Part shown: one piece after another, positions 3,926 to 30,317 of the stretch
Layout: every line of letters starts with the position of its first letter
Numbering within the stretch: the stretch's first letter is position 1
From: Clostridia bacterium
GTDB taxonomy: Bacteria > Bacillota > Clostridia > JAAYHZ01
Reading direction: 5' to 3'
NCBI GenBank assembly: GCA_050950825.1
Contig: JBMNIH010000008.1
Location: forward strand, 96,001 to 160,000
DNA: 64,000 nucleotides
Position numbers and translations under genes: made by a program
The notes under the pieces: model-generated
The model's input: only the letters and a program-made list of their open reading frames with translations
What the model was told of the DNA's origin: nothing
Databases searched by the model: none

Positions 3926-5989
3926 TTATTTTGACAGATTATTTAACAAACTATCCGGTACTTGCTCGTAATGGGAAAATTGCATAGTAAATACGCCGCG
4001 TCCCTGTGTCTTTGAACGTAAAATTGTCGCATAGCCGAACATTTCGGCCAAAGGCACTTTTGCAGTAATGGTTTGGGCATTGTTCTGGGCGGACATACCG
4101 TCAATCTTGCCTCTTCTTGAGCTCATATCTCCGATGACATCACCCATGTATTCTTCCGGAACGACAATATCCACTCTCATAACAGGTTCCATCAATACCG
4201 GGTCCGCTTTCTTACAAGCTTCTTTAAATGCCATGGATCCTGCAATTTTAAACGCCAATTCCGATGAATCCACTTCATGATAGGATCCGTCGAGCAGCGT
4301 AACTTTTACGTCCAGCACCTGATATCCGGCTAAAACACCGGAATTCATTGCATCCTTAATACCGGCTTCGATCGGTGCAATGTATTCTTTCGGAATGACA
4401 CCGCCAACGATCTTGTTTTCAAATACAAATCCCTTACCCGCTTGCAGCGGTTCGATCTCGACGACACAGTGTCCGTATTGGCCCCGTCCTCCGGTTTGCC
4501 TTATGAACTTACCTTCGCCGACGGCTTTTTTAGTAATGGTTTCTTTATAGGAAACCTGAGGCTTTCCTACATTGGCTTCCACGTTAAACTCCCTCAGCAA
4601 ACGGTTAACGATGATTTCAAGATACAGTTCTCCCATACCTGCAATCAAAGTCTGCCCGGTTTCCTCGTTTGTAATCGTTCGGAAGGTAGGATCTTCCTCT
4701 CCTAATTTTGCAAGAGCCGACATCATCTTATCCTGCATAGCCTTCGTCTTCGGTTCGATGGCAATTTGAATAACCGGTTCGGGGAATTCGATCGCTTCCA
4801 ATACGATGGGTTCATCCTCGGAGCACAACGTATCCCCGGTGGTGGTAAATTTCAAACCGACAGCCGCAGCGATGTCACCGGCATAAACCGCCGGGATCTC
4901 TTCTCGATGATTGGCATGCATTTGCAGAATTCGTCCGACCCGTTCCTTTCTTCCTCTTACCGAGTTGTATACATAGGAACCGGCTTCCAGTTTACCTGAG
5001 TAAACTCGGAAAAAGCACAGTTTTCCTACGAAAGGATCGGTCATAATTTTAAACGCCAGTGCACAGAACTTCTCGTTGTCGTCGGCGGCTCTTTCTATGA
5101 CCTCGTCGCTGTCAAGCTTCTTCCCCTTAACGTTAGGAATATCTAAGGGCGACGGCAAATAGTCCACGATCGCATCCAACAGTTTTTGTACACCTTTGTT
5201 CTTATAGGATGATCCGCAAAGCACGGGAATAATGCTCACGTTGATAGTGGCCACCCGAAGACCTTTTTTAATTTGTTCCACGGATAATTCTCCGCCTCCG
5301 CAATAAATCTCCATTAAGTCTTCGTCGTTTTCGACAACCGACTCTAAGAGTTTTTCACGAAAAGCCAAAGCGGATTCCATGTATTCTTCAGGCACATCCC
5401 GTTCTTCAATATCCACACCCAGCTCATCTTTATAGAAAAACGCTCTCATGGTGATCAAATCGATGATTCCTTTAAATTCGCTTTCCTTGCCGATCGGCAG
5501 CTGAATAGGAACCGGATTGGCACCAAGGCGCTCCTTCATCATTTTGACACAACGTAAAAAATCCGCCCCCACGATATCCATTTTATTGATATAGGCTATG
5601 CGGGGTACACCGTATTTGTCCGCTTGTCTCCAAACTGTTTCCGTCTGCGGTTCAACCCCGCCTTTTGCACAAAAAACGGTTACCGCACCATCGAGAACTC
5701 GAAGAGAACGCTCTACTTCAACAGTAAAGTCAACGTGTCCCGGCGTATCTATAATGTTGATTCTTTTACCCTTCCAAAATGACGTCGTCGATGCCGAGCT
5801 AATGGTAATTCCGCGCTCTTGCTCCTGAACCATAAAGTCCATGGTAGCGGATCCCTCATGTACCTCTCCCATTTTACGTACTTTTCCCGTATAGTACAGA
5901 ATACGTTCGGTGGTAGTGGTCTTTCCGGCATCGATATGGGCCATGATACCTATATTTCTCGTATCGGCCAGCGAGTACATTCGAGACAT
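3926..5989 (-). CDS. fusA: Elongation factor G
   Basis: [33 protein letters not shown]; position in str operon. Confidence 0.98.
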
Positions 5990-21476: not shown

Positions 21477-22047
21477 CCCTTCCTTTCAAATCCGCCTTTT
21501 CGGTATCCGACTCGCAGCTTTTATGCCAATCGGCCATCACGTTATCAAAAACAGGGATCTTACTCATATGTTGAAGCAGGCTTTTGGCAGCAACCCCGGT
21601 GATGACGCCGGTGATAAGAGACGATAACAGCAAAAAAGGCAGATATCCGAATACCGCTGTCGACTTTAACATCAATGATGCGGCCAAGATCTGTCCGGTG
21701 TTGTGGGCGGCAGCGCCGCCTACGCTGATACCGATCATGGAGAAAAACATCGGATAACCGAATCTCAGCAAAATCATAACCGTAAGAGCCAGCATGCCGC
21801 CGGTCAGTGAAAAAATCAAAGATGTGAGACTTCCGAATAACAAAGAAACGACGATGCAGCGTACAAGAGTGATAAAAAAACTCGATTGTATGCCTAAACA
21901 GAAAAGTGCAAACAAGGTGACAATATTCGCCAAACCTAATTTGATACCCGGTAACGGAATAAACACGTCAAGAGGAATCATCCGTTCAAAATAGGATATA
22001 ACGATCGCCATGGCTATTAATATTCCGTTTATGACCATCTTTCTCAT
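21451..22047 (-). CDS. Gx transporter / heptaprenyl diphosphate synthase component I family membrane protein
   Basis: PGIKLGLANI, GISVGGAAAHNTGQ motifs. Confidence 0.85.
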   Translation of the reverse strand: MRKMVINGILIAMAIVISYFERMIPLDVFIPLPGIKLGLANIVTLFALFCLGIQSSFFITLVRCIVVSLLFGSLTSLIFSLTGGMLALTVMILLRFGYPMFFSMIGISVGGAAAHNTGQILAASLMLKSTAVFGYLPFLLLSSLITGVITGVAAKSLLQHMSKIPVFDNVMADWHKSCESDTEKADLKGRDGHYASNR

Positions 22048-22070
22048 ATATTCTTTACCCTCGATATCCG

Positions 22071-22451
22071 TCAGCGAATGACGATATCGGTATCATCCTC
22101 AGCGCTTCCTATGATATTAATAATTACACCTGCCGGTACGCAAACCGCCGTTTGACCGGGCCGACTGATTCTGCCCATCTTTTCACAAATACGGTCCGGG
22201 CAGTCGGACCGTTCAAAACGAATGGTTCTTTCTTCCGCTATAATGATGTTATTATATTTCCCTTTTAATTCAATAATAATCGGCTCGTCAACCTGATCAA
22301 GATCTATGGTCCGGATCACTTCCCCGTCTCGAATTATTTGAGCGACGGCATGTCCTGCTCCGGTACGGATTCGAAATGAGGCAAATATGGCCACAGAGAT
22401 ACAAATGATGACGGCAAATATTAAAATATCTCCCGGTTTAAGCTTCTTCAT
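22071..22451 (-). CDS. NusG domain II-containing membrane-anchored protein
   Basis: N-terminal TM, SDCPDRICEKMG.I..PGQTAVCVP. Confidence 0.88.
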   Translation of the reverse strand: MKKLKPGDILIFAVIICISVAIFASFRIRTGAGHAVAQIIRDGEVIRTIDLDQVDEPIIIELKGKYNNIIIAEERTIRFERSDCPDRICEKMGRISRPGQTAVCVPAGVIINIIGSAEDDTDIVIR

Positions 22452-22666
22452 TTCTCCTCCGTAAATTTTCCTTTAGCTGTCAAGTTCGTTCCTTACTGCA
22501 ATATATAACCTTTTCACCTATTATACAGTACAAACAACAATTTGCTATAGTAAAATCGTATTAATTTTGCTGATTATAACACACATATTGACCGGGTTCA
22601 ATAAATTGAAAAAAGCCGCTATTTACCGAATTACATGCCTTGATTGAAAAAGTAAAGTCCACTTTG

Positions 22667-24058
22667 GTTATAGTCTTAAGTAGTGGTGTAAATTTCGTGG
22701 AGTATGCTTGACAAGAGTAACCACCATATGATTTTTACTTTATTAGATTCAAACAAAAAAGATAAAGTAAAGGAGGTCATACCGTGGCTACTAAAAATAG
22801 AATGTCACTTTTAGAGCAACTTAGCAAGTATGTTGTTGAAAAAGATAAGGATTTTTTAAAGGAAGCGCTTACGCTGTTAATCAATGCTCTGATGGATGCG
22901 GAAGTTACGTCGATGATCGGTGCGGAAAAGTATGAACGAAGTGAGAATCGGAACAATCATCGTAATGGATACCGACAAAGAGAATGGGATACTCGCCTTG
23001 GTACGTTACAGTTAAGCATACCCAAATTGAGGCATGGAAGCTATTTCCCAAGTTTATTAGAGCCTCGGAAGATGTCAGAAAAAGCTTTATTAAATGTGGT
23101 GCAGGAAGCTTATGTGCACGGTGTCAGCACTAGAAAAGTAGATGAGTTGGTAGAATCTCTCGGAATTAAAGGGATGGATAAAAGCGAAGTTTCCGGGATC
23201 AGCAAGCAATTGGATGGCTTTGTCACCGAGTTCAAGAACCGCATACTCGAAGGAGAATACCCTTATCTTTGGCTTGATGCTACTTTTCCTAAGGTTCGTG
23301 AAGGTGGAAGAGTATGCAGTATGGCACTTGTAATAGCCGTAGGTGTAAATCAGTCCGGTGAACGAGAGATACTAGGTTTTGATGTCGGCATGAGTGAAGA
23401 CGGAGCTTTTTGGGAAGAGTTTCTGAGAAAGCTTGTAGCAAGGGGACTTAAAGGGGTGAAGTTAGTTGTAAGTGATGCCCATGAGGGGTTAAAATCCGCC
23501 ATAAAGAAGGTTTTAACCGGGAGCACATGGCAAAGATGCCGAGTACATTTTATGCGGAACGTATTAAGCCAAGTGCCGAAGAAGTGCCAAGGAATGGTCT
23601 CCTCAATCATACGCACCATTTTTGCACAAAATGATCAGGAATCCGCAAGGGAACAGCTAAGACATGTGGTAGATGAACTGAGGGGGCGTTTTCCGAAAGC
23701 AATGGAAATCCTTGAAGCAGCCGAAGAGGATATATTGGCGTATATGGCCTTTCCCCGTGAGCATTGGATACAGATTCATTCTACGAATCCATTGGAACGG
23801 CTTAATCGTGAGATACGCCGTCGGACTGATGTTGTATGCATATTTCCTAATCGTGATGCCGTTATTCGCCTTGTAGGTACTATGCTTATGGAGCAGAACG
23901 ATGAATGGCAGGTAGGGCGGCGATACTTCAGTTTAGAATCTATGGAAAAGCTTACACAGGCTAATGGGTTTTCATTAGCTCCGATTGCTATCTTACATAA
24001 ATGAAACGAAGGGAAGATAAAGTAGAAATCATTTTACACCACTTGACAAGACACTATC
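22667..24058 (+). mobile_element. IS256-family insertion sequence
   Basis: Imperfect IRs sharing AGTGGTGTAAA; 8-bp target duplication CCACTTTG (22659-22666, 24059-24066). Confidence 0.92.
22784..24004 (+). CDS. IS256-family transposase
   Basis: RNGYR, WLDA, VSDAHEGL, WQRCRVHFMRN, STNPLERLNREIRRRT; SD AAGGAGG + GTG. Confidence 0.97.
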   Translation: MATKNRMSLLEQLSKYVVEKDKDFLKEALTLLINALMDAEVTSMIGAEKYERSENRNNHRNGYRQREWDTRLGTLQLSIPKLRHGSYFPSLLEPRKMSEKALLNVVQEAYVHGVSTRKVDELVESLGIKGMDKSEVSGISKQLDGFVTEFKNRILEGEYPYLWLDATFPKVREGGRVCSMALVIAVGVNQSGEREILGFDVGMSEDGAFWEEFLRKLVARGLKGVKLVVSDAHEGLKSAIKKVLTGSTWQRCRVHFMRNVLSQVPKKCQGMVSSIIRTIFAQNDQESAREQLRHVVDELRGRFPKAMEILEAAEEDILAYMAFPREHWIQIHSTNPLERLNREIRRRTDVVCIFPNRDAVIRLVGTMLMEQNDEWQVGRRYFSLESMEKLTQANGFSLAPIAILHK

Positions 24059-24317
24059 CCACTTTGCAAGGTTAAATTCCATCCATCCTAAAAAATTATT
24101 GCATAAGGTGGGATAAAATTATTCTAACAAGGAAGAATTGTTACTATGGAAGGATTTTTTCTGCAAAAAGCAAGTGAATGCTTCATTTATTACCTGTTTT
24201 TTTGCATAGCAAACAAACCGTGTTGATTTCTTCACTTTTTTGCAAAGGTAAAATCCACTACGGTTAAAAGGTAATAATTGGCAGAACGATGCCTTTCGGA
24301 TAATTATTAATACTTTA

Positions 24318-25936
24318 CTCAAACTTCGCAGTAAATTAATATAATAAATTCCTAGATAATTTAATATAAGCTTTTTAAGTAATATATGTAACTAAGCGAC
24401 TTTTGACTTGGGTAATCTTAGTTTTAAATATTCAGGAAGTCTAGAAATGAAAATTCTAAGAAACCCATTTACTCGCTTATCATCAATCATGAAATACTCC
24501 ATTAAGCATTCTGACAGTATTTCGAGAATCAGTTGTATTACTTCATCGAACTTTATGTCTTGCAATTCATCGTAGCATAAATAAAACAACTCACCTATAG
24601 TTCGATTATCCATATTGTTCCGATTTTCTATTGCCAGCATGATATACCTACTGAGGACTACTGCGGTATGAGCCGTCATCATATCATATGACAAGCCTTG
24701 AAACTCTCTACCTAAATTGAGATATGTCTTGCACATTTTATAGAAAACTTCTATATCCCAACGTTTGCCATACGTTTGAATTATTTGCTCTTCCGAAAGC
24801 GCCAAATCGGTTGAAATGATGGCTATCCATTTCTTCCTGTTATTCCGATCCCGTACGAATACAATGCGAGCATCCATAGTCTCTTCTTCTTTGTTGTGAA
24901 TGGATACGACAACCGACAAAAGGTATTTGGAACGACCACGTCTCTTTTTTTGAGAATTATAGATTTCCTTAAGGGTCATTTTCTTTCCGTTAAAGGAATA
25001 CTTGATATTAGGAGTATCTTTAAGCCGCCCGATGCTGTGAAGCTTCAACTTCGCAATGTCCATGAGTATTGCAGGATAGGAAAACCAACTGTCGAACAGC
25101 ACGTGCTTTGCAGGTATGTGTTGCTCGACTGCTTGCCGAAGCATCGCTATCATTAAATCAGGGGCTTTCTGCATGGCTTGCATTCTTCGTTTGTATCCAT
25201 TGGTGTTTTTATGGATATCATCTCTCATTTTACACAAATGTTTTTCAACTTTGCCGGATGTGAGCAAACAAAAATTAAACGGAATAAGTGTGTTGCCATC
25301 TGACCATGCAAGAGTAAGCAACCTGAATCCTTTTTTACACTTGTTGTCGGTATGATCTCTGACAAACGAAAGCATCTCTACACATTTGCTTCGTAAACGG
25401 CCGTAGAAGGTATCATCTACAACAATGACATTAATACGGTCATCCGATGTCAAATCCTTTATATGGCTGTTTATAACCGTGGATGCCAATGTCATAACAA
25501 ATGTCTGCCAGTTAATATATATAGAGTTTAGGAAACGATATACAGTATCTTTTTTAAAATCGACATTTTTGTCTCTGTTGCTGTCTTTATTTTTTATCAG
25601 GTTCATATACATACTTCTGTTTGTGAAAACCAATTGAAACAAATAGAGAAAAATTTGAATTACCGGTACACCTCTTTTTTTATAAGCATTGGCATGTTGC
25701 AGAGCTTGATAAATTTTAAACTTTCTAAAAAAAAGATTGATTCTATCGTTAAACTGCTTTTCTTCGATATAATTTTCCGGTATACTATTCATGGCAAGGA
25801 GCTCCTTCGTTGTGATATTTTGTTTGTTATGTTAATTAATATTATACCACAACCCAGGTCTCCTTGCTATACTTTTTTGCACTAAACTATTGAATTATCT
25901 AGGTTCGAACTCACTTTTTCAAGTGCGAAGTTTGAG
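24318..25936 (-). mobile_element. IS4-superfamily (ISH3/IS701-like) insertion sequence
   Basis: IRs CTCAAACTTCGCA / TGCGAAGTTTGAG; 7-bp target duplication TACTTTA (24311-24317, 25937-25943); AT-richer than the host. Confidence 0.88.
24392..25792 (-). CDS. IS4-superfamily DDE transposase
   Basis: VVDDT, LFDSWFS, and YGKRWDIEVFYK (YREK-type motif). Confidence 0.93.
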   Translation of the reverse strand: MNSIPENYIEEKQFNDRINLFFRKFKIYQALQHANAYKKRGVPVIQIFLYLFQLVFTNRSMYMNLIKNKDSNRDKNVDFKKDTVYRFLNSIYINWQTFVMTLASTVINSHIKDLTSDDRINVIVVDDTFYGRLRSKCVEMLSFVRDHTDNKCKKGFRLLTLAWSDGNTLIPFNFCLLTSGKVEKHLCKMRDDIHKNTNGYKRRMQAMQKAPDLMIAMLRQAVEQHIPAKHVLFDSWFSYPAILMDIAKLKLHSIGRLKDTPNIKYSFNGKKMTLKEIYNSQKKRRGRSKYLLSVVVSIHNKEEETMDARIVFVRDRNNRKKWIAIISTDLALSEEQIIQTYGKRWDIEVFYKMCKTYLNLGREFQGLSYDMMTAHTAVVLSRYIMLAIENRNNMDNRTIGELFYLCYDELQDIKFDEVIQLILEILSECLMEYFMIDDKRVNGFLRIFISRLPEYLKLRLPKSKVA

Positions 25937-27233
25937 TACTTTAATAAATCGGGATTCAAACAAATATTATTCGGTTCAATGAGTTTGGATCCCAATTTTT
26001 TTATTACTTCTTCACCAAACATAAATTTAAACACTTCATGAGGAGTTCTATCATTTAAAGATAATCCGGAGTAAGAATTTATGTGGTTCATTACAAGATT
26101 AATATCTTCCTGCACGAGATTATCGAAGCTTGTTCCTTTCGGTAAGATCTTCCTCAGTTCCCCGTGATTTTTTTCTTGTGATGCCCTTTGATAAGCTGAA
26201 TACGAATCGCAATAAAAGACCTTAGTTCTAACTTCTCCGGTTACTCGGTAGTATTCAATCGCTTTCGGGTTCGTAAATTCACTGCCCTTGTCAGCCAAAA
26301 GTATGGGAAACAGTTTTCGAAACGTGTCAAGACCCAAAAGCTCTGTCAGTTTGTCGAAAACATCGATTACCGATTGCGAATCGTTCGAGTCTCGTAAAAA
26401 TGCAAGCATAAATTCGGTTTTAACAAAATGCAACGTCATCAGCACTTTACCGCCTTTTGTACCAAGCACCGAATCCATTTCCACGACGAAAGGAGCATTA
26501 ACATCTGCCATCACTTTTTTGTAATCATCATACGTGCGTCCCTATTCGGCATTCGCGATCCACTTTATGAGTTACGCCCGGTTTTTTGCGAGATCGATAT
26601 CTTACTTTTCTGGGCATATCAATATTACGAGCCGTGAAGAGGCCGTAGTCAACGTAATTGTATAACGTCCTTTCGCTGTACATAATTTTATCGGCATTGT
26701 TTACGCAAATATGATGAATGGACTGGCCTTTTTTCAGAAGAGGTGATATCACGGTATCCAATTGTTGCAACGATTTTTCATCGATTGCCACACCGGAACG
26801 TGATTCCGAACGTGTATATTCATATTCTTTGTCTGCAACTTTAGCGTCGTATATCATTTTTTGCAATGAGCACTTGCGTTTTGTCGAGCATCCGTTACAT
26901 ACGTAAGGCGGTTTTTCGAGAGCATCACACTTCTGTTCTACGAAAGCATCACAGAAGTCATTGCACAGTCTGCATATGCTACAGATCCCTTTTTCGCAAA
27001 CTCCGCTTTTTTTACATAGCGAACGTTTATGACAACCGATCCTGTACTTACATGCATTGTACGATTGGCCCGAAAGCACCTGTCTTTCGTTCTACCCGAT
27101 GTCGACGAACTTCTTTGGATATTGTCGTGCAATCTTTACCGAGTATTTTACCGATTTCCTTAAAAGATTTTCCCTCCTTCAATAAGTTTTCGATATCTTT
27201 CCTGTCTGATAACGTCAAATGAGTTGACATCAT
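25882..27233 (-). pseudogene. IS30-family transposase with Cys-rich insertion, two frameshifts
   Basis: Three fragments: HTH HLTLSDRKDIE..TTISKEVRR (27048-27233), Cys-rich PPYVCNGC block (26528-27079), DDE core VEMDSV / LADKGSEF / QEKNH (25882-26514). Confidence 0.88.
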
Positions 27234-27780
27234 TATGGTTCTCCTTTCAAAATCATTTTGAAAGACATCGTTCTTTTTTAATGATTGCACTGATATCGGT
27301 AAGTAATACATGTTTTGTTAGTTTTTAGTTTTAGATCATGACAAAAGTCCATCCGGTTAAAAAGACAAGCAATGGCCTTTTGCGGCATAAACGGCCTACT
27401 TCCCGGCAAAGCCGGGTCCCTTCCATTTATTCCACAGTGCCATGCTTTTCTTTTTTCGCCATGCTTTTGAACATATACCGAGGGATGAAGAGGAGATGCA
27501 AGCGACCAATTTCTCAACGTCCCCCTCGTCTTTTATATCGTAGCATGGCGAACACCGTATTACTTTTATATTTGTTTAGGTAATGATAGTCTCAGGAATC
27601 AGCTAAAAATGCATGCTTTCTTTACTAGTAATTTTTTGTATTTGCGTTTGCATTAGTAAAGTCCACAATATTTTTATTAATATTTTTGCAAAAGTAAAAT
27701 CAACTGCAGCTTTCGAAGGGTGGACTTTACTTTTTCGATTAAAGACCGAATTACATGCCTTGAATTTTGAAAAAAGGGTG

Positions 27781-27810
27781 TTGACAAAAAGGATAGCCTG
27801 CTTGTATAAT
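27781..27810 (+). promoter_or_regulatory. sigmaA promoter of tRNA pair
   Basis: TTGACA-18 nt-TATAAT, ~17 nt upstream of tRNA-Gly. Confidence 0.75.
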
Positions 27811-27827
27811 GTAAAAGTCCGAAAAAC

Positions 27828-27901
27828 GCGGGTGTAGTTCAATGGTAGAACATCAGCCTTCCAAGCTGATTGCGAGGGTTCGATTCCCTTCACCCGCTCC
27901 A
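27828..27901 (+). tRNA. tRNA-Gly (TCC)
   Basis: Acceptor GCGGGTG/CACCCGC, anticodon arm TCAGC-CTTCCAA-GCTGA, GTTCGA T-loop, CCA end. Confidence 0.97.
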
Positions 27902-27914
27902 TAATCAACCACAT

Positions 27915-27991
<77 letters not shown>

Positions 27992-28000
27992 CAGATTGTC

Positions 28001-28029
28001 CGAAAACCTGCTAAAATAGCAGGTTTTCG
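28001..28029 (+). terminator. Hairpin downstream of the tRNAs
   Basis: CGAAAACCTGCTA-AAA-TAGCAGGTTTTCG. Confidence 0.7.
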
Positions 28030-28166
28030 ATGTTTTATCGGTTTGTATGATCACTTTTTCAACGAACTTGAAGAAAACGGTGAAGAAAAACCGTTGTAAT
28101 AAAACGGAAATATCAAGAATTCGATATATTAAACGTGATAAAGAAGATAAATAATATAGAAACGAC

Positions 28167-28566
28167 TTACATAGCTGCTATTAATCTTTGAACTCCCACC
28201 ATATTAATCGCTCTACGCATGTTATAGGCAAGAAAACACAACCCAAGTTCTGCCGTGATTTTTTCTTTTCCATGACATAAGACATAGTGGCTTAAATTAT
28301 GCCATTTTATTGTACCAAATTGATGCTCCGAATGGCACATTCGCTTTTTTCTCATTTCATCCGTATACTTCATTCAGATAAGGACTTTTTTGTGACTTGT
28401 CTTCTTAAAGTTGTTCGGGAGCTTTTCGCCTTCCGGCATGAGTTGCAATGGACGCTCCTTGCATGAATTCATTCTTATGGGAGCATACTTTGCTTTTGGT
28501 CCAAACGCGGCAACCATGAACCCGGATTACGTACACTTGTTGGTACAAAATCGACAAGCCGCCTTA
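28167..28566 (-). pseudogene. IS1182-family transposase C-terminal remnant
   Basis: KRMCHSEHQFGTIK..LAYNMRRAI and upstream KAACRFCTNKC fragment; broken frames. Confidence 0.7.
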
Positions 28567-29407
28567 CTCGCTTCATAAGGTGGTTGGAGAAAATCAATAA
28601 TTAATTTAACAACATCGGTAAAGTCAAGTTTATATTGCAGTATTTTTTTACAAAAATTGCCCCATCTTCTTATAATAATAGACTCATCAGCTAACCTTAA
28701 AATAATAGTGACAGAATCTTTTTCATAAGGTGTGCCCCGGTTAGTAAGGGTTTCATAAATAGCTTCCTGTAATTTACGTCCATCGAAATTAAAGGTTGTT
28801 GCCATATAATATATATCAAAGAAGTCTTTCATCCTGCTTGTAGCTTCCATTAGTGATATGATAGCATCTAATTTTTCTGCCACTGTGGATTCCAATGAAT
28901 AAGTCAGAATCTTAGGTTCCTCAAATTCTGGAAGTAATACCGGTAAAGTTCGTTCAACTGGCGAAGGTACTACAACATCACCAACTCCCAAGTCTATACT
29001 AAAAGGGATCTTAACCCTTCCAATAGACCCCATGAGGTAAATTCTAATACCATGGTATTTCTTTATCTCTCTGATAGTTTCTATCCTTCTAATCTCAAAC
29101 TGTATAAAATTATTTTTGCCAGTTGAGGAAATAATATTTTTTTAACAAGCTTTTCTACTGCATCCATATCGTTAGGATAATTTCTTAAAAGATAATCTGC
29201 ATCAACTGTTGGTCTTGCGGCAAATCCACTGATTGAATATAATAAAAAGCCGCCTTTAAGAATAACTTTTTCTTTGTAATCACTTTCTGAAAGTCTTCGA
29301 ATAAATTCCTCCTGGCAAAATAGATTTAGGAGCTGTTGTAATGGAATACCTTGTTCTTTTGATTTGTTTTTAAGTCTCGCTATGACTGAAGCTTCAATAT
29401 TTCCCAT
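28567..29407 (-). pseudogene. AbiEii nucleotidyltransferase toxin, frameshifted and C-terminally truncated
   Basis: ASVIARLKN, ILKGGFLL..RPTVDAD, then in another frame IDLGVGD, YSLESTVAEKL, SRMKDFFD; frame break at or near the A7 run 29137-29143. Confidence 0.85.
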
Positions 29408-30003
29408 TATAACCACATCCCTATACGAGTTTGCACTTTATTCTTAATATTAAATATTTCTGCATACTCAAACAGCTTTCTTATGTTTTTCTTCGAATCC
29501 TCTATATAACGGCCAATAGCATTATAAAATACTTCTTTCTCCAGTTTTTTCTCATAACGGAGGACATCGCAAATTGTGCGATCTCTGTTGTATATCTTTA
29601 TTTCAATGCCATCTATCTCTATTATATCTACACCAATGTCTAAAAACTTTGGTTCAAGATAGTAAGGTTCTATTAGAGGATAATCAATTCTATACTGAGT
29701 TGTTTTACTATATCTATCCACAGCAATTTGCCATGCCGGCGGTATGCGGTCTGTGTAGTCATAATGGAATAAGGCACTTTCAAGAAATATAACTGCTCGC
29801 GGAAATAAACGTGCAATAATTACCTCTTTACGAATAACATAATCTGTAAGTTCATAAAAACCGCGTTTAGCCTTTGTAATAATCCCTTCATTTAGAAGTC
29901 TTTTTATCTGGCGACTCGAAAGTCCTAAATCTTTAAGCTCTACAGTTTTTAAGATTCCCCCGCATCTTTGAAATTCCTTCTTCAAAATATCAATTTGTAT
30001 CAT
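29407..30003 (-). CDS. AbiEi antitoxin (type IV toxin-antitoxin)
   Basis: N-terminal wHTH (GILKTVELKDLGLS..KRGFY), LESALFHY, IYNRDRTICDVLRY; coupled to abiEii. Confidence 0.88.
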   Translation of the reverse strand: MIQIDILKKEFQRCGGILKTVELKDLGLSSRQIKRLLNEGIITKAKRGFYELTDYVIRKEVIIARLFPRAVIFLESALFHYDYTDRIPPAWQIAVDRYSKTTQYRIDYPLIEPYYLEPKFLDIGVDIIEIDGIEIKIYNRDRTICDVLRYEKKLEKEVFYNAIGRYIEDSKKNIRKLFEYAEIFNIKNKVQTRIGMWL

Positions 30004-30317
30004 TTTGCACCTCTCGGCCTGCATTTGTTTTTCGATGCAGTCTTTTAAGTGCATTATACCATATTATTACTATTAAATAATGATCTGCTTTTTATGCGGG
30101 TTTAATCAAATAAGTAATATAAGTTATAAAGATATATAAGCAAATATCTACCAATTACATTTCCGGAAATCGTGTAGAAACCTCTGTTATAAAAATTATT
30201 AGAAACGGCTTCTATGTCTATACTAACAAATTATATTTAGGTGATCCGTTGGTTTTACAATAAATGAAATAATGTGAAATACAGTAGCATCAAGGGTTCT
30301 GATGTGCAGAACCTCCT

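Follow-up and report, generated by a model that had tools for sequence, protein, structure and literature searches.

A dead IS30-type element in a clostridial genome and its relatives, an apparently promoter-homing subgroup of the family

In the IS30 family of insertion sequences (IS), IS30 duplicates 2 bp of its target and is directed to palindromic hot spots or to its own ends (PMC9333248). Another habit has been described for TnGBS, ISLre2 and ISKra4, which insert 15-17 bp upstream of the -35 box, in one orientation, with an 8-9-bp duplication (PMC3942029, in part). That paper attributes the orientation to unequal ends, proposes a contact with RNA polymerase, places the elements mostly in Firmicutes, and terms promoter specificity unique among prokaryotic elements (PMC3942029). 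The present work concerns an IS30-type element found in a stretch of 64,000 nucleotides from a Clostridia bacterium (assembly GCA_050950825.1, contig JBMNIH010000008.1, positions 96,001 to 160,000), henceforth the window. Together with two IS nested in it, the element occupies positions 22638..27744 (5,107 bp), its transposase gene (tnp) being on the minus strand. The explanation that we hold to be the best, with a probability of roughly 0.7 that includes the docking step proposed below, is that this region is a dead copy of a distinct and widespread clostridial subgroup of the IS30 family, which homes to promoters of the sigma-70 type.

The likeness to IS30 of Escherichia coli is straightforward: a DDE transposase recognized by the curated IS30 model, an N-terminal HTH_38 domain, and a single open reading frame (ORF) enclosed by terminal inverted repeats some 25 bp long. 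However, IS30A measures 1,221 bp, of which 62 and 7 nt are not part of the ORF, whereas the elements of the subgroup span 1.67-2.1 kb and carry three sites at each end. The 2-3-bp duplication of the family is replaced here by one of 13 bp, and the targeting of hot spots or of its own ends by that of promoters. With TnGBS, ISLre2 and ISKra4 the subgroup shares oriented insertion at promoters (seen on the left in 26 of 28 flanks, on the right in 2 of 25). Yet the transposases of these elements are Mutator-like (IS256-related), unrelated to the IS30-type enzyme considered here, and the distances differ: 23 bp separate the duplication from the -35 box (36 bp from the element), with 13 bp duplicated, instead of 15-17 and 8-9 bp. 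Promoters of tRNA genes are among the targets here, while the TnGBS paper makes no mention of tRNA (PMC3942029).

Two further systems come close. IS1630 of Mycoplasma fermentans, again IS30-type, makes variable duplications of 19-26 bp (PMC2853133, in part). It resembles the subgroup in that these lengths are far above 2-3 bp; here, by contrast, the length is fixed at 13 bp. To go by the title of a 1999 report by Calcutt, IS1630 is said to target inverted repeats, which the target sites of the subgroup are not. As to the IScream phages, they are prophages bounded by clostridial IS30-type transposases, forming a clade whose nearest neighbours in ISfinder are IS30 elements from C. thermocellum, Treponema denticola and Halanaerobium (PMC12823448, in part). 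Their hosts are of the same kind as those of the subgroup, and the text of that paper holds none of the terms target site duplication, promoter, inverted repeat and tRNA (PMC12823448). Because it sets its transposases beside clostridial IS30 entries of ISfinder, relatives are catalogued there. In the literature that we searched (supplements to PMC3942029 and PMC12823448 excluded), no member of the IS30 family is described as duplicating 13 bp or as targeting promoters, and no paper treats the IS30 family together with TnGBS.

The promoter as a target

Scanning of one genome per species yielded 496 stretches, and the family counts given here rest on the best 80 of them. Most of these loci come from Clostridia or Negativicutes, and their identity to the query does not exceed 66%; records of plasmids and phages were left out of the flank statistics. 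With left and right defined in the orientation of tnp, 26 of 28 left flanks have a hexamer within one mismatch of TATAAT that starts at a distance of 58-60 bp from the element, but only 2 of 25 right flanks do (Fisher p 1.3e-10); one within one mismatch of TTGACA starts at 35-37 bp in 15 of 28 and 0 of 25, respectively (Fisher p 6.5e-6). The register is tight. The -10 box starts at exactly 59 or 60 bp in 24 of the 28 left flanks, and any other 3-nt window of these flanks displays a -10-like hexamer in at most six of them. The TGn of an extended -10 accompanies it in 10 of 28, and a run of A appears in the left flanks at 28-31 bp, which we take to be the place of the proximal UP element.

The 28 left flanks are at most 51% identical pairwise, so that the target sites can be considered independent. 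Copies residing in the same genome (L062-064; L005 and L006) differ in their flanks, hence the promoter is host DNA; the idea that it might be part of the element was rejected, as it lies outside the duplication and varies among such copies. A terminator-like hairpin as target, as for IS1630, was rejected as well, with 0 of 15 rebuilt empty sites displaying a stem beyond shuffles at p <0.05. These promoters look functional: tRNA genes follow on the promoter strand, 12-117 nt after the -10 box, in seven of the 28 (the window, L001, L008, L017, L063, L068 and L074), a TPP riboswitch follows in L061 (the only Rfam match in 20 loci), and ORFs follow in most of the other left flanks. On the right side of the element no tRNA was found among the loci examined.

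In the window, the host promoter of a tRNA operon, TTGACA-18-TATAAT (27781..27810, plus strand, 12/12), has its -35 box starting 36 bp and its -10 box 60 bp from the element. It is followed by tRNA-Gly(tcc) and tRNA-Arg(tct) (27828..27991, plus strand), then by a terminator-like hairpin (28001-28029). The first-pass annotation of this DNA had rightly placed the insertion just upstream of a tRNA promoter; what it missed is that, to judge from the flanks of the family, this promoter is the target, not an incidental neighbour. A second host promoter-like site, reading away from the side of the right inverted repeat (IRR), occupies 22573..22601 on the minus strand (-35 TTGAAC, 17 nt, TGn-TATAAT; 10/12, with extended -10). 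It stands at 36 and 59 bp from the element boundary, upstream of a gene for a NusG_II-domain protein (22071-22451). Since the same register, 36 and 59-60 bp, is found on both sides, the 13 bp are centred between two divergent promoters. With the transcription start taken at about 7 nt after the -10 box, the family appears to home to about -71 to -59 of promoters, in a single orientation, left end promoter-ward and tnp pointing away.

Two side observations belong here. In L001 and in the window, which are from different organisms, the same tRNA-Gly(tcc)/tRNA-Arg(tct) operon is preceded by an element of the subgroup; the two proteins are only about 66% identical, and the 13-bp repeats differ. 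The promoter could have been hit repeatedly, or the two elements could go back to a single old insertion. In four more distant loci (L021, L018, L027 and L035) a -10-like hexamer is placed 55 bp, not 59, from the left end, a hint of a sister group, and the promoter trait may extend to distant relatives with another register.

The duplication itself, 13 bp (ACCGAATTACATG), is an exact repeat at 22625..22637 and 27745..27757. As a matter of fact the direct repeat of the window is exact over 19 bp (22625-22643 and 27745-27763), and both lengths had been put forward in the first-pass annotation, the longer one counting CCTTGA. The register of the family makes the 13 bp the duplication and the next 6 bp the tip of the element. 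Forty loci with both ends detected and enough flank could be evaluated. Exactly 6 bp outside both terminal sites, 13/13 identity was found in 13 of them and 12/13 in one; matches appeared after a shift of 1-2 nt in three others, L008 (one mismatch), L026 (none) and L068 (two), and besides these no shifted register with fewer than five mismatches turned up in any of the 40. The 13-bp length thus recurs in the subgroup; the 19-bp reading is limited to the window copy. A further suggestion, that of a target resembling the element's own end, holds for this copy alone: its flank matches 6/6 tip bases (local score 10, shuffle p 0.02), while none of the 14 other copies with a confirmed duplication exceeds 4/6, and 13 of these 14 display no similarity beyond shuffles (the remaining one has p 0.03). 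It is not a rule of the family.

Six sites and a cysteine-rich transposase

Once the nested insertions are subtracted (an IS256-family element of 1,392 bp with its 8-bp repeat, and an IS4-family element of 1,619 bp with its 7-bp repeat), the element measures 2,081 bp, with non-coding ends of 511 nt (27234-27744) and 269 nt, in line with initial estimates of about 2.1 kb, 510 nt and 270 nt. Its terminal inverted repeat has arms of 23 nt, 91% complementary, and the ends are of 25 bp across the family. The right end (22638..22662, plus strand) consists of the 6-bp tip CCTTGA and a terminal site, R1 (22644-22662, 25.2 bits); the left end (27720..27744, minus strand) of the terminal site L1 (27720-27738, 22.0 bits) and a 6-bp tip (27739-27744). 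Read from the tip inward, the family consensus of this hexamer is GGT.aA.

R1 and L1 are two of the six copies per element of a 19-bp site with consensus TTGnAAAAnTAAAwTCCAC. In the window the four others are all on the plus strand: R2 (24064..24082, 24.5 bits), which adjoins R1 once the IS256-family insert is removed; R3 (24240..24258, 26.2 bits), internal, about 50 nt after the tnp stop and 157 nt from R2; L3 (27648..27666, 14.5 bits), conserved in position; and L2 (27686..27704, 22.8 bits), paired with L1 in inverted orientation. With a matrix derived from 149 sites of the family, all six score 14.5-26.2 bits, and the only further sites that it detects over the 64-kb window are weak ones at 25904 (8.8 bits) and 30543 (7.6 bits). 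The matrix thus recovers every one of the six motif copies listed at first sight as an 18-mer. Searched with up to three mismatches, this 18-mer has 6 matches in the 64-kb window for 0.45 expected, and 0 of 100 shuffles give as many as 6. Five of the matches (22645, 24241, 27649, 27687 and, on the minus strand, 27720) are sites of the original list, and the one at 5717 (three mismatches) is unrelated; the listed site 24065-24082, with four mismatches to the 18-mer, was missed in that search and sits at the conserved R2 position.

In order, strand and spacing, the six sites follow a common layout, + - - (tnp) - - -, in 29 loci of other genomes. The left end has one inward-pointing site and two inverted ones; the right end has an internal site and a terminal tandem pair, all in one orientation. 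The gap between L1 and L2 is 16-17 nt in 29/29 loci, and that between R2 and R1 is 1 nt, again in 29/29. Between L2 and L3 it is 7-8 nt in 20/29 and 18-19 nt in 9/29; between R3 and R2 it falls into classes of 125-127 nt (nine loci), 146-147 nt (six), 156-158 nt (ten) and 169-171 nt (four). The gaps in the window, 15 (L1-L2), 19 (L2-L3), 157 (R3-R2) and 1 nt (R2-R1), conform to this layout. Its R3-R2 spacer has no detectable sequence similarity to that of 34 other loci, the length class being kept. The two L2-L3 classes are about one helical turn apart, which we would read as the mark of protein sites that need a constant phase. Individual positions also have their signatures, CCACCCct after L1 and R3, and the 6-bp tip outside L1 and R1. 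From this conservation we infer that the transposase binds at all six sites, as proposed from the start under the name of multi-site end recognition.

For the long non-coding ends no known RNA family was recovered, since an Rfam search of 22000-28500 (E up to 0.1) returned the two tRNAs only. A cargo gene between L3 and the start codon was considered and rejected, with no convincing ORF in L001. A stretch of about 150 nt in the long region upstream of tnp (27352-27503) is 75% identical to the same region in L040 (positions 352-505), with no other match among the compared loci; it folds at -50.1 kcal/mol, a value without shuffle control, and it matched no Rfam family.

In its active form the subgroup encodes one DDE transposase of 430 amino acids (aa), made of an N-terminal HTH_38, a cysteine-rich module, the region of the IS30 model and an integrase-like core. 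An intact protein of 432 aa, P0001, is 99% identical over the query. With the curated IS30 model (cut-off 80 bits) it reaches 106.5 bits, and P0005, P0075 and P0114 reach 94.5, 110.3 and 98.7 bits. In the window the gene is a pseudogene in three frames (25936..27233, minus strand: 27233-27069, 27070-26540 and 26541-25936). It is broken by two frameshifts, and its three pieces align by tblastn to P0001 with 98%, 100% and 100% identity, and for this reason we regard it as a recently dead copy. Its original stop codon lies past the IS4-family insert, at 24307-24309. Because the gene is broken, its fragments score 23.3 and 75.2 bits, under the IS30 cut-off; HTH_38 is matched at 60.5 bits in the window fragment and at 58 bits in P0001. 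A structure search with the transposase matched the core of retroviral integrases only, and no solved IS30-type structure. None of the Mutator models matched the transposase, the Mutator-family gene of the region being that of the nested IS256-type element.

The cysteine-rich insert that had been noticed between the helix-turn-helix (HTH) and DDE parts proves to be a module of twelve cysteines, residues 61-121 (coding region 26870..27052, minus strand, from transposase alignments). All twelve are invariant in an alignment of 12 relatives; in that of 80 sequences seven remain so and three are conserved in 90% or more, while C79 falls under 90%. The module comprises the pattern C-x2-C-x2-C-x3-C, which we take to be a ferredoxin-type iron-sulfur signature; the sole match to an iron-sulfur region in a Pfam search with P0001 (E up to 1) came at 0.12, and we make no metal claim. 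It is absent from InsI1 of E. coli IS30 and mostly lacking in a 30%-identical relative from Collinsella. Searched with the cysteine-rich part, the ESM Atlas returned nothing at 0.9 or more, and a complex prediction from the transposase alignment and residues 240-315 of RPOA_CLOAB gave a score of 0.00, without a verdict.

A distinct subgroup of IS30, as first suspected, is supported by the score of P0001 on the IS30 model and by the recurrence of six-site ends and of the 13-bp duplication; neither short ends nor 2-3-bp repeats are seen in the homologues. A sequence search for longer relatives collected 4,409 proteins, mostly of about 430 aa, which makes the subgroup abundant in anaerobic Firmicutes. 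Compared with plasmid and phage collections, P0001 met 3 and 7 records, respectively, all below 50% identity, those of the phage collection being unannotated contigs from human faecal samples. Near-identical short contigs with the IS (L049, L051, L075 and L076) are present in metagenome-assembled genomes (MAGs) labelled Methanosarcina, Nanoarchaeia, Bacteroides and Treponema; these labels are probably binning errors, not true hosts.

A proposed docking on polymerase, and other explanations

How would such an element find its place? The six sites would be transposase-binding sites on which an asymmetric transpososome is built, and their asymmetry would set the orientation of insertion, as argued for ISLre2-type elements (PMC3942029, in part). 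Movement would proceed by copy-out and paste-in, as for IS30 (PMC9333248, in part). Should abutted ends be joined through a 2-bp spacer, as in IS30, the right tip (TTGACC in several members) and the TAAAwT of L1 would come to stand 17 bp apart, which would make a junction promoter. To capture its target, the transpososome would dock on sigma-A RNA polymerase bound to a promoter, an idea that follows the TnGBS proposal (PMC3942029, in part). Strand transfer, staggered by 13 bp, would then occur at the upstream edge of the polymerase footprint, at about -71 to -59, and insertion there would leave the core promoter and the UP region intact. The cysteine-rich module is a candidate for the adaptor to polymerase. 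The ends of Mu and Tn7 have several transposase sites each, in an asymmetric layout, and Ty3 and Ty1 integrate upstream of tRNA genes under the guidance of the transcription machinery; other enzymes and other hosts are involved, and we mention them as analogies only. As for the copy in the window, it came to rest between the two divergent promoters, that of tRNA-Gly/Arg and that of the NusG_II-domain gene, later being hit by the IS256-family and IS4-family elements and gaining its two frameshifts.

Several facts fit this explanation poorly. Two of the 28 left flanks (L064 and L065) have no -10 box, and a good -35 box is present in only 15 of the 28; among 18 flanks of more distant relatives, the -10 box is at 58-60 bp in four and at 55 bp in four. 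The duplication is missing in 22 of the 40 evaluable loci, including L003, L004, L042, L043 and L074, which have plausible tips yet no repeat, and in L021, a more distant relative from a Lutisporaceae MAG, the repeat is of about 22 bp instead of 13. Mismatches in the tip suggest that the true right terminus was probably missed in about 14 of the 22 loci without repeat; many of these loci are metagenome assemblies, where the flanks of repeats can be chimeric. In the window, the first two bases of the tip CCTTGA differ from the family consensus GGT.aA, and the explanation does not account for the extra 6 bp of identity with host DNA. Finally, it is by conservation and analogy that we assign a role to the sites and propose docking.

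Could the transposase read promoter DNA by itself, without polymerase? An HTH akin to sigma region 4 and a second DNA-binding region would then bind the -35 and -10 boxes, much as they bind the halves TTGnAA and TAAAwT of the sites. This would be a version of the self-like target, and of the habit of IS30 to insert beside its own ends; indeed IS30 targets its own inverted repeats (PMC9333248, in part), and the flank in the window is end-like (p 0.02). The site consensus does contain TTGnAAAA and TAAAwT, eight of the ten perfect -35 boxes read TTGACAAA, and HTH_38 weakly matches sigma-70 region 4 (E 0.095) and sigma70-ECF (E 0.005). However, the half-motifs are 3-4 nt apart in the site and 17 nt apart in a promoter, the matrix gives promoter regions no site score, and 13 of 14 other copies have no end-like flank. 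Moreover, the best-conserved box is the -10 (26 of 28, against 15 for the -35), 59 bp away from the insertion point. A quarter of the targets are tRNA promoters, a share that fits occupancy better than sequence alone, tRNA operons making an estimated few percent of promoters. This distance, this mismatch in spacing and this share of tRNA promoters lead us to prefer docking, and we hold direct reading to be unlikely. Far less credible is the absence of any targeting, with near-random insertions of which only those in harmless spots upstream of promoters persist. IS copies that have become fixed are generally found in excess at safe, intergenic positions, and the insertion does leave the core promoter intact. 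Selection of this kind, though, cannot yield a single orientation or a register of plus or minus 1 bp, with 24 of 28 at 59 or 60 bp and right flanks nearly devoid of promoters.

The sites and the duplication call for similar scrutiny. Since IS30 inserts beside its own inverted repeats (PMC9333248, in part), the six motifs might be non-functional scars of older copies, inserted beside resident ends and followed by deletions; the R1/R2 tandem pair, and the L1/L2 inverted pair, which resembles a junction of two ends, lend themselves to this idea. Scars, however, would vary, and the six sites recur at the same places, on the same strands and with the same spacings in 29 loci belonging to different species; every position also has a signature of its own, such as CCACCCct after L1 and R3, so that such an origin seems highly improbable. 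The 19-bp repeat of the window might also be taken at face value, the right end lacking its 6-bp tip and CCTTGA being host DNA. The repeat is exact, the tip is off the family consensus at 2/6 positions, and the family does allow some variation in length (about 22 bp in L021; shifts in L008, L026 and L068). Against this, the last four bases, TTGA, fit the tip consensus, and a duplication of 13 bp brings both promoters in register at 36 and 59-60 bp, whereas one of 19 bp puts the promoter of the IRR side off by 6; we think it rather improbable that 19 bp were duplicated. To come back to docking, a bolder form of it would have promoter homing arise independently in the IS30 family, the twelve-cysteine module docking the six-site transpososome on sigma-A polymerase, perhaps with some added sensitivity of transposition to oxygen or redox state in these anaerobes, and the same machinery placing the IScream prophages of gut clostridia. 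So extended, the proposal is doubtful.

Surroundings and significance

Both nested elements are apparently intact. The IS256-family one (22667..24058, plus strand; tnp 22784-24004; Transposase_mut 457.8 bits, IS256 model 374.3 bits) sits at the R1/R2 junction, flanked by the 8-bp repeat CCACTTTG at 22659-22666 and 24059-24066; its transposase is of 406 aa and its inverted repeats, imperfect, of 27 nt. The IS4-family one (24318..25936, minus strand; tnp 24392-25792; IS4 model 548 bits) sits at the stop codon of the IS30-type tnp, the reading frame of which it lengthens, between 7-bp repeats TACTTTA at 24311-24317 and 25937-25943, with a transposase of 466 aa and a perfect 13-bp terminal inverted repeat. 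The neighbouring genes (tuf, fusA, rpsG, rpsL, rpoC, rpoB and that of a SigI factor) are chromosomal and clostridial in style; a scan for resistance genes gave none reaching its cut-off. Just downstream of the tRNA terminator, a 68-aa ORF (28167-28373) has a C-terminal match to DDE_Tnp_1_6 at 23.3 bits, under the cut-off of 25.1, and is probably the remnant of a further IS. Beyond it a gene for an AbiEii-type nucleotidyltransferase toxin is split (28527-29033 and 29081-29416), and a gene for an AbiEi-type antitoxin (29407-30054) adjoins it.

The subgroup adds four traits to those of classical IS30: three sites per end, a 13-bp stagger, a cysteine-rich module, and an oriented insertion at promoters, precise to the base. 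It would be a second, independent lineage of promoter-homing elements, and the mechanism therefore becomes testable by comparison of two unrelated enzymes. With respect to annotation, IS of this kind would mark real promoters to the base. They also bear on how strong promoters, those of tRNA genes among them, cope with mobile DNA, and perhaps on the places where IS30-bounded prophages of the gut integrate. Finally, a transposase that places its cargo at a defined, harmless position near active promoters could serve as a tool for clostridia.

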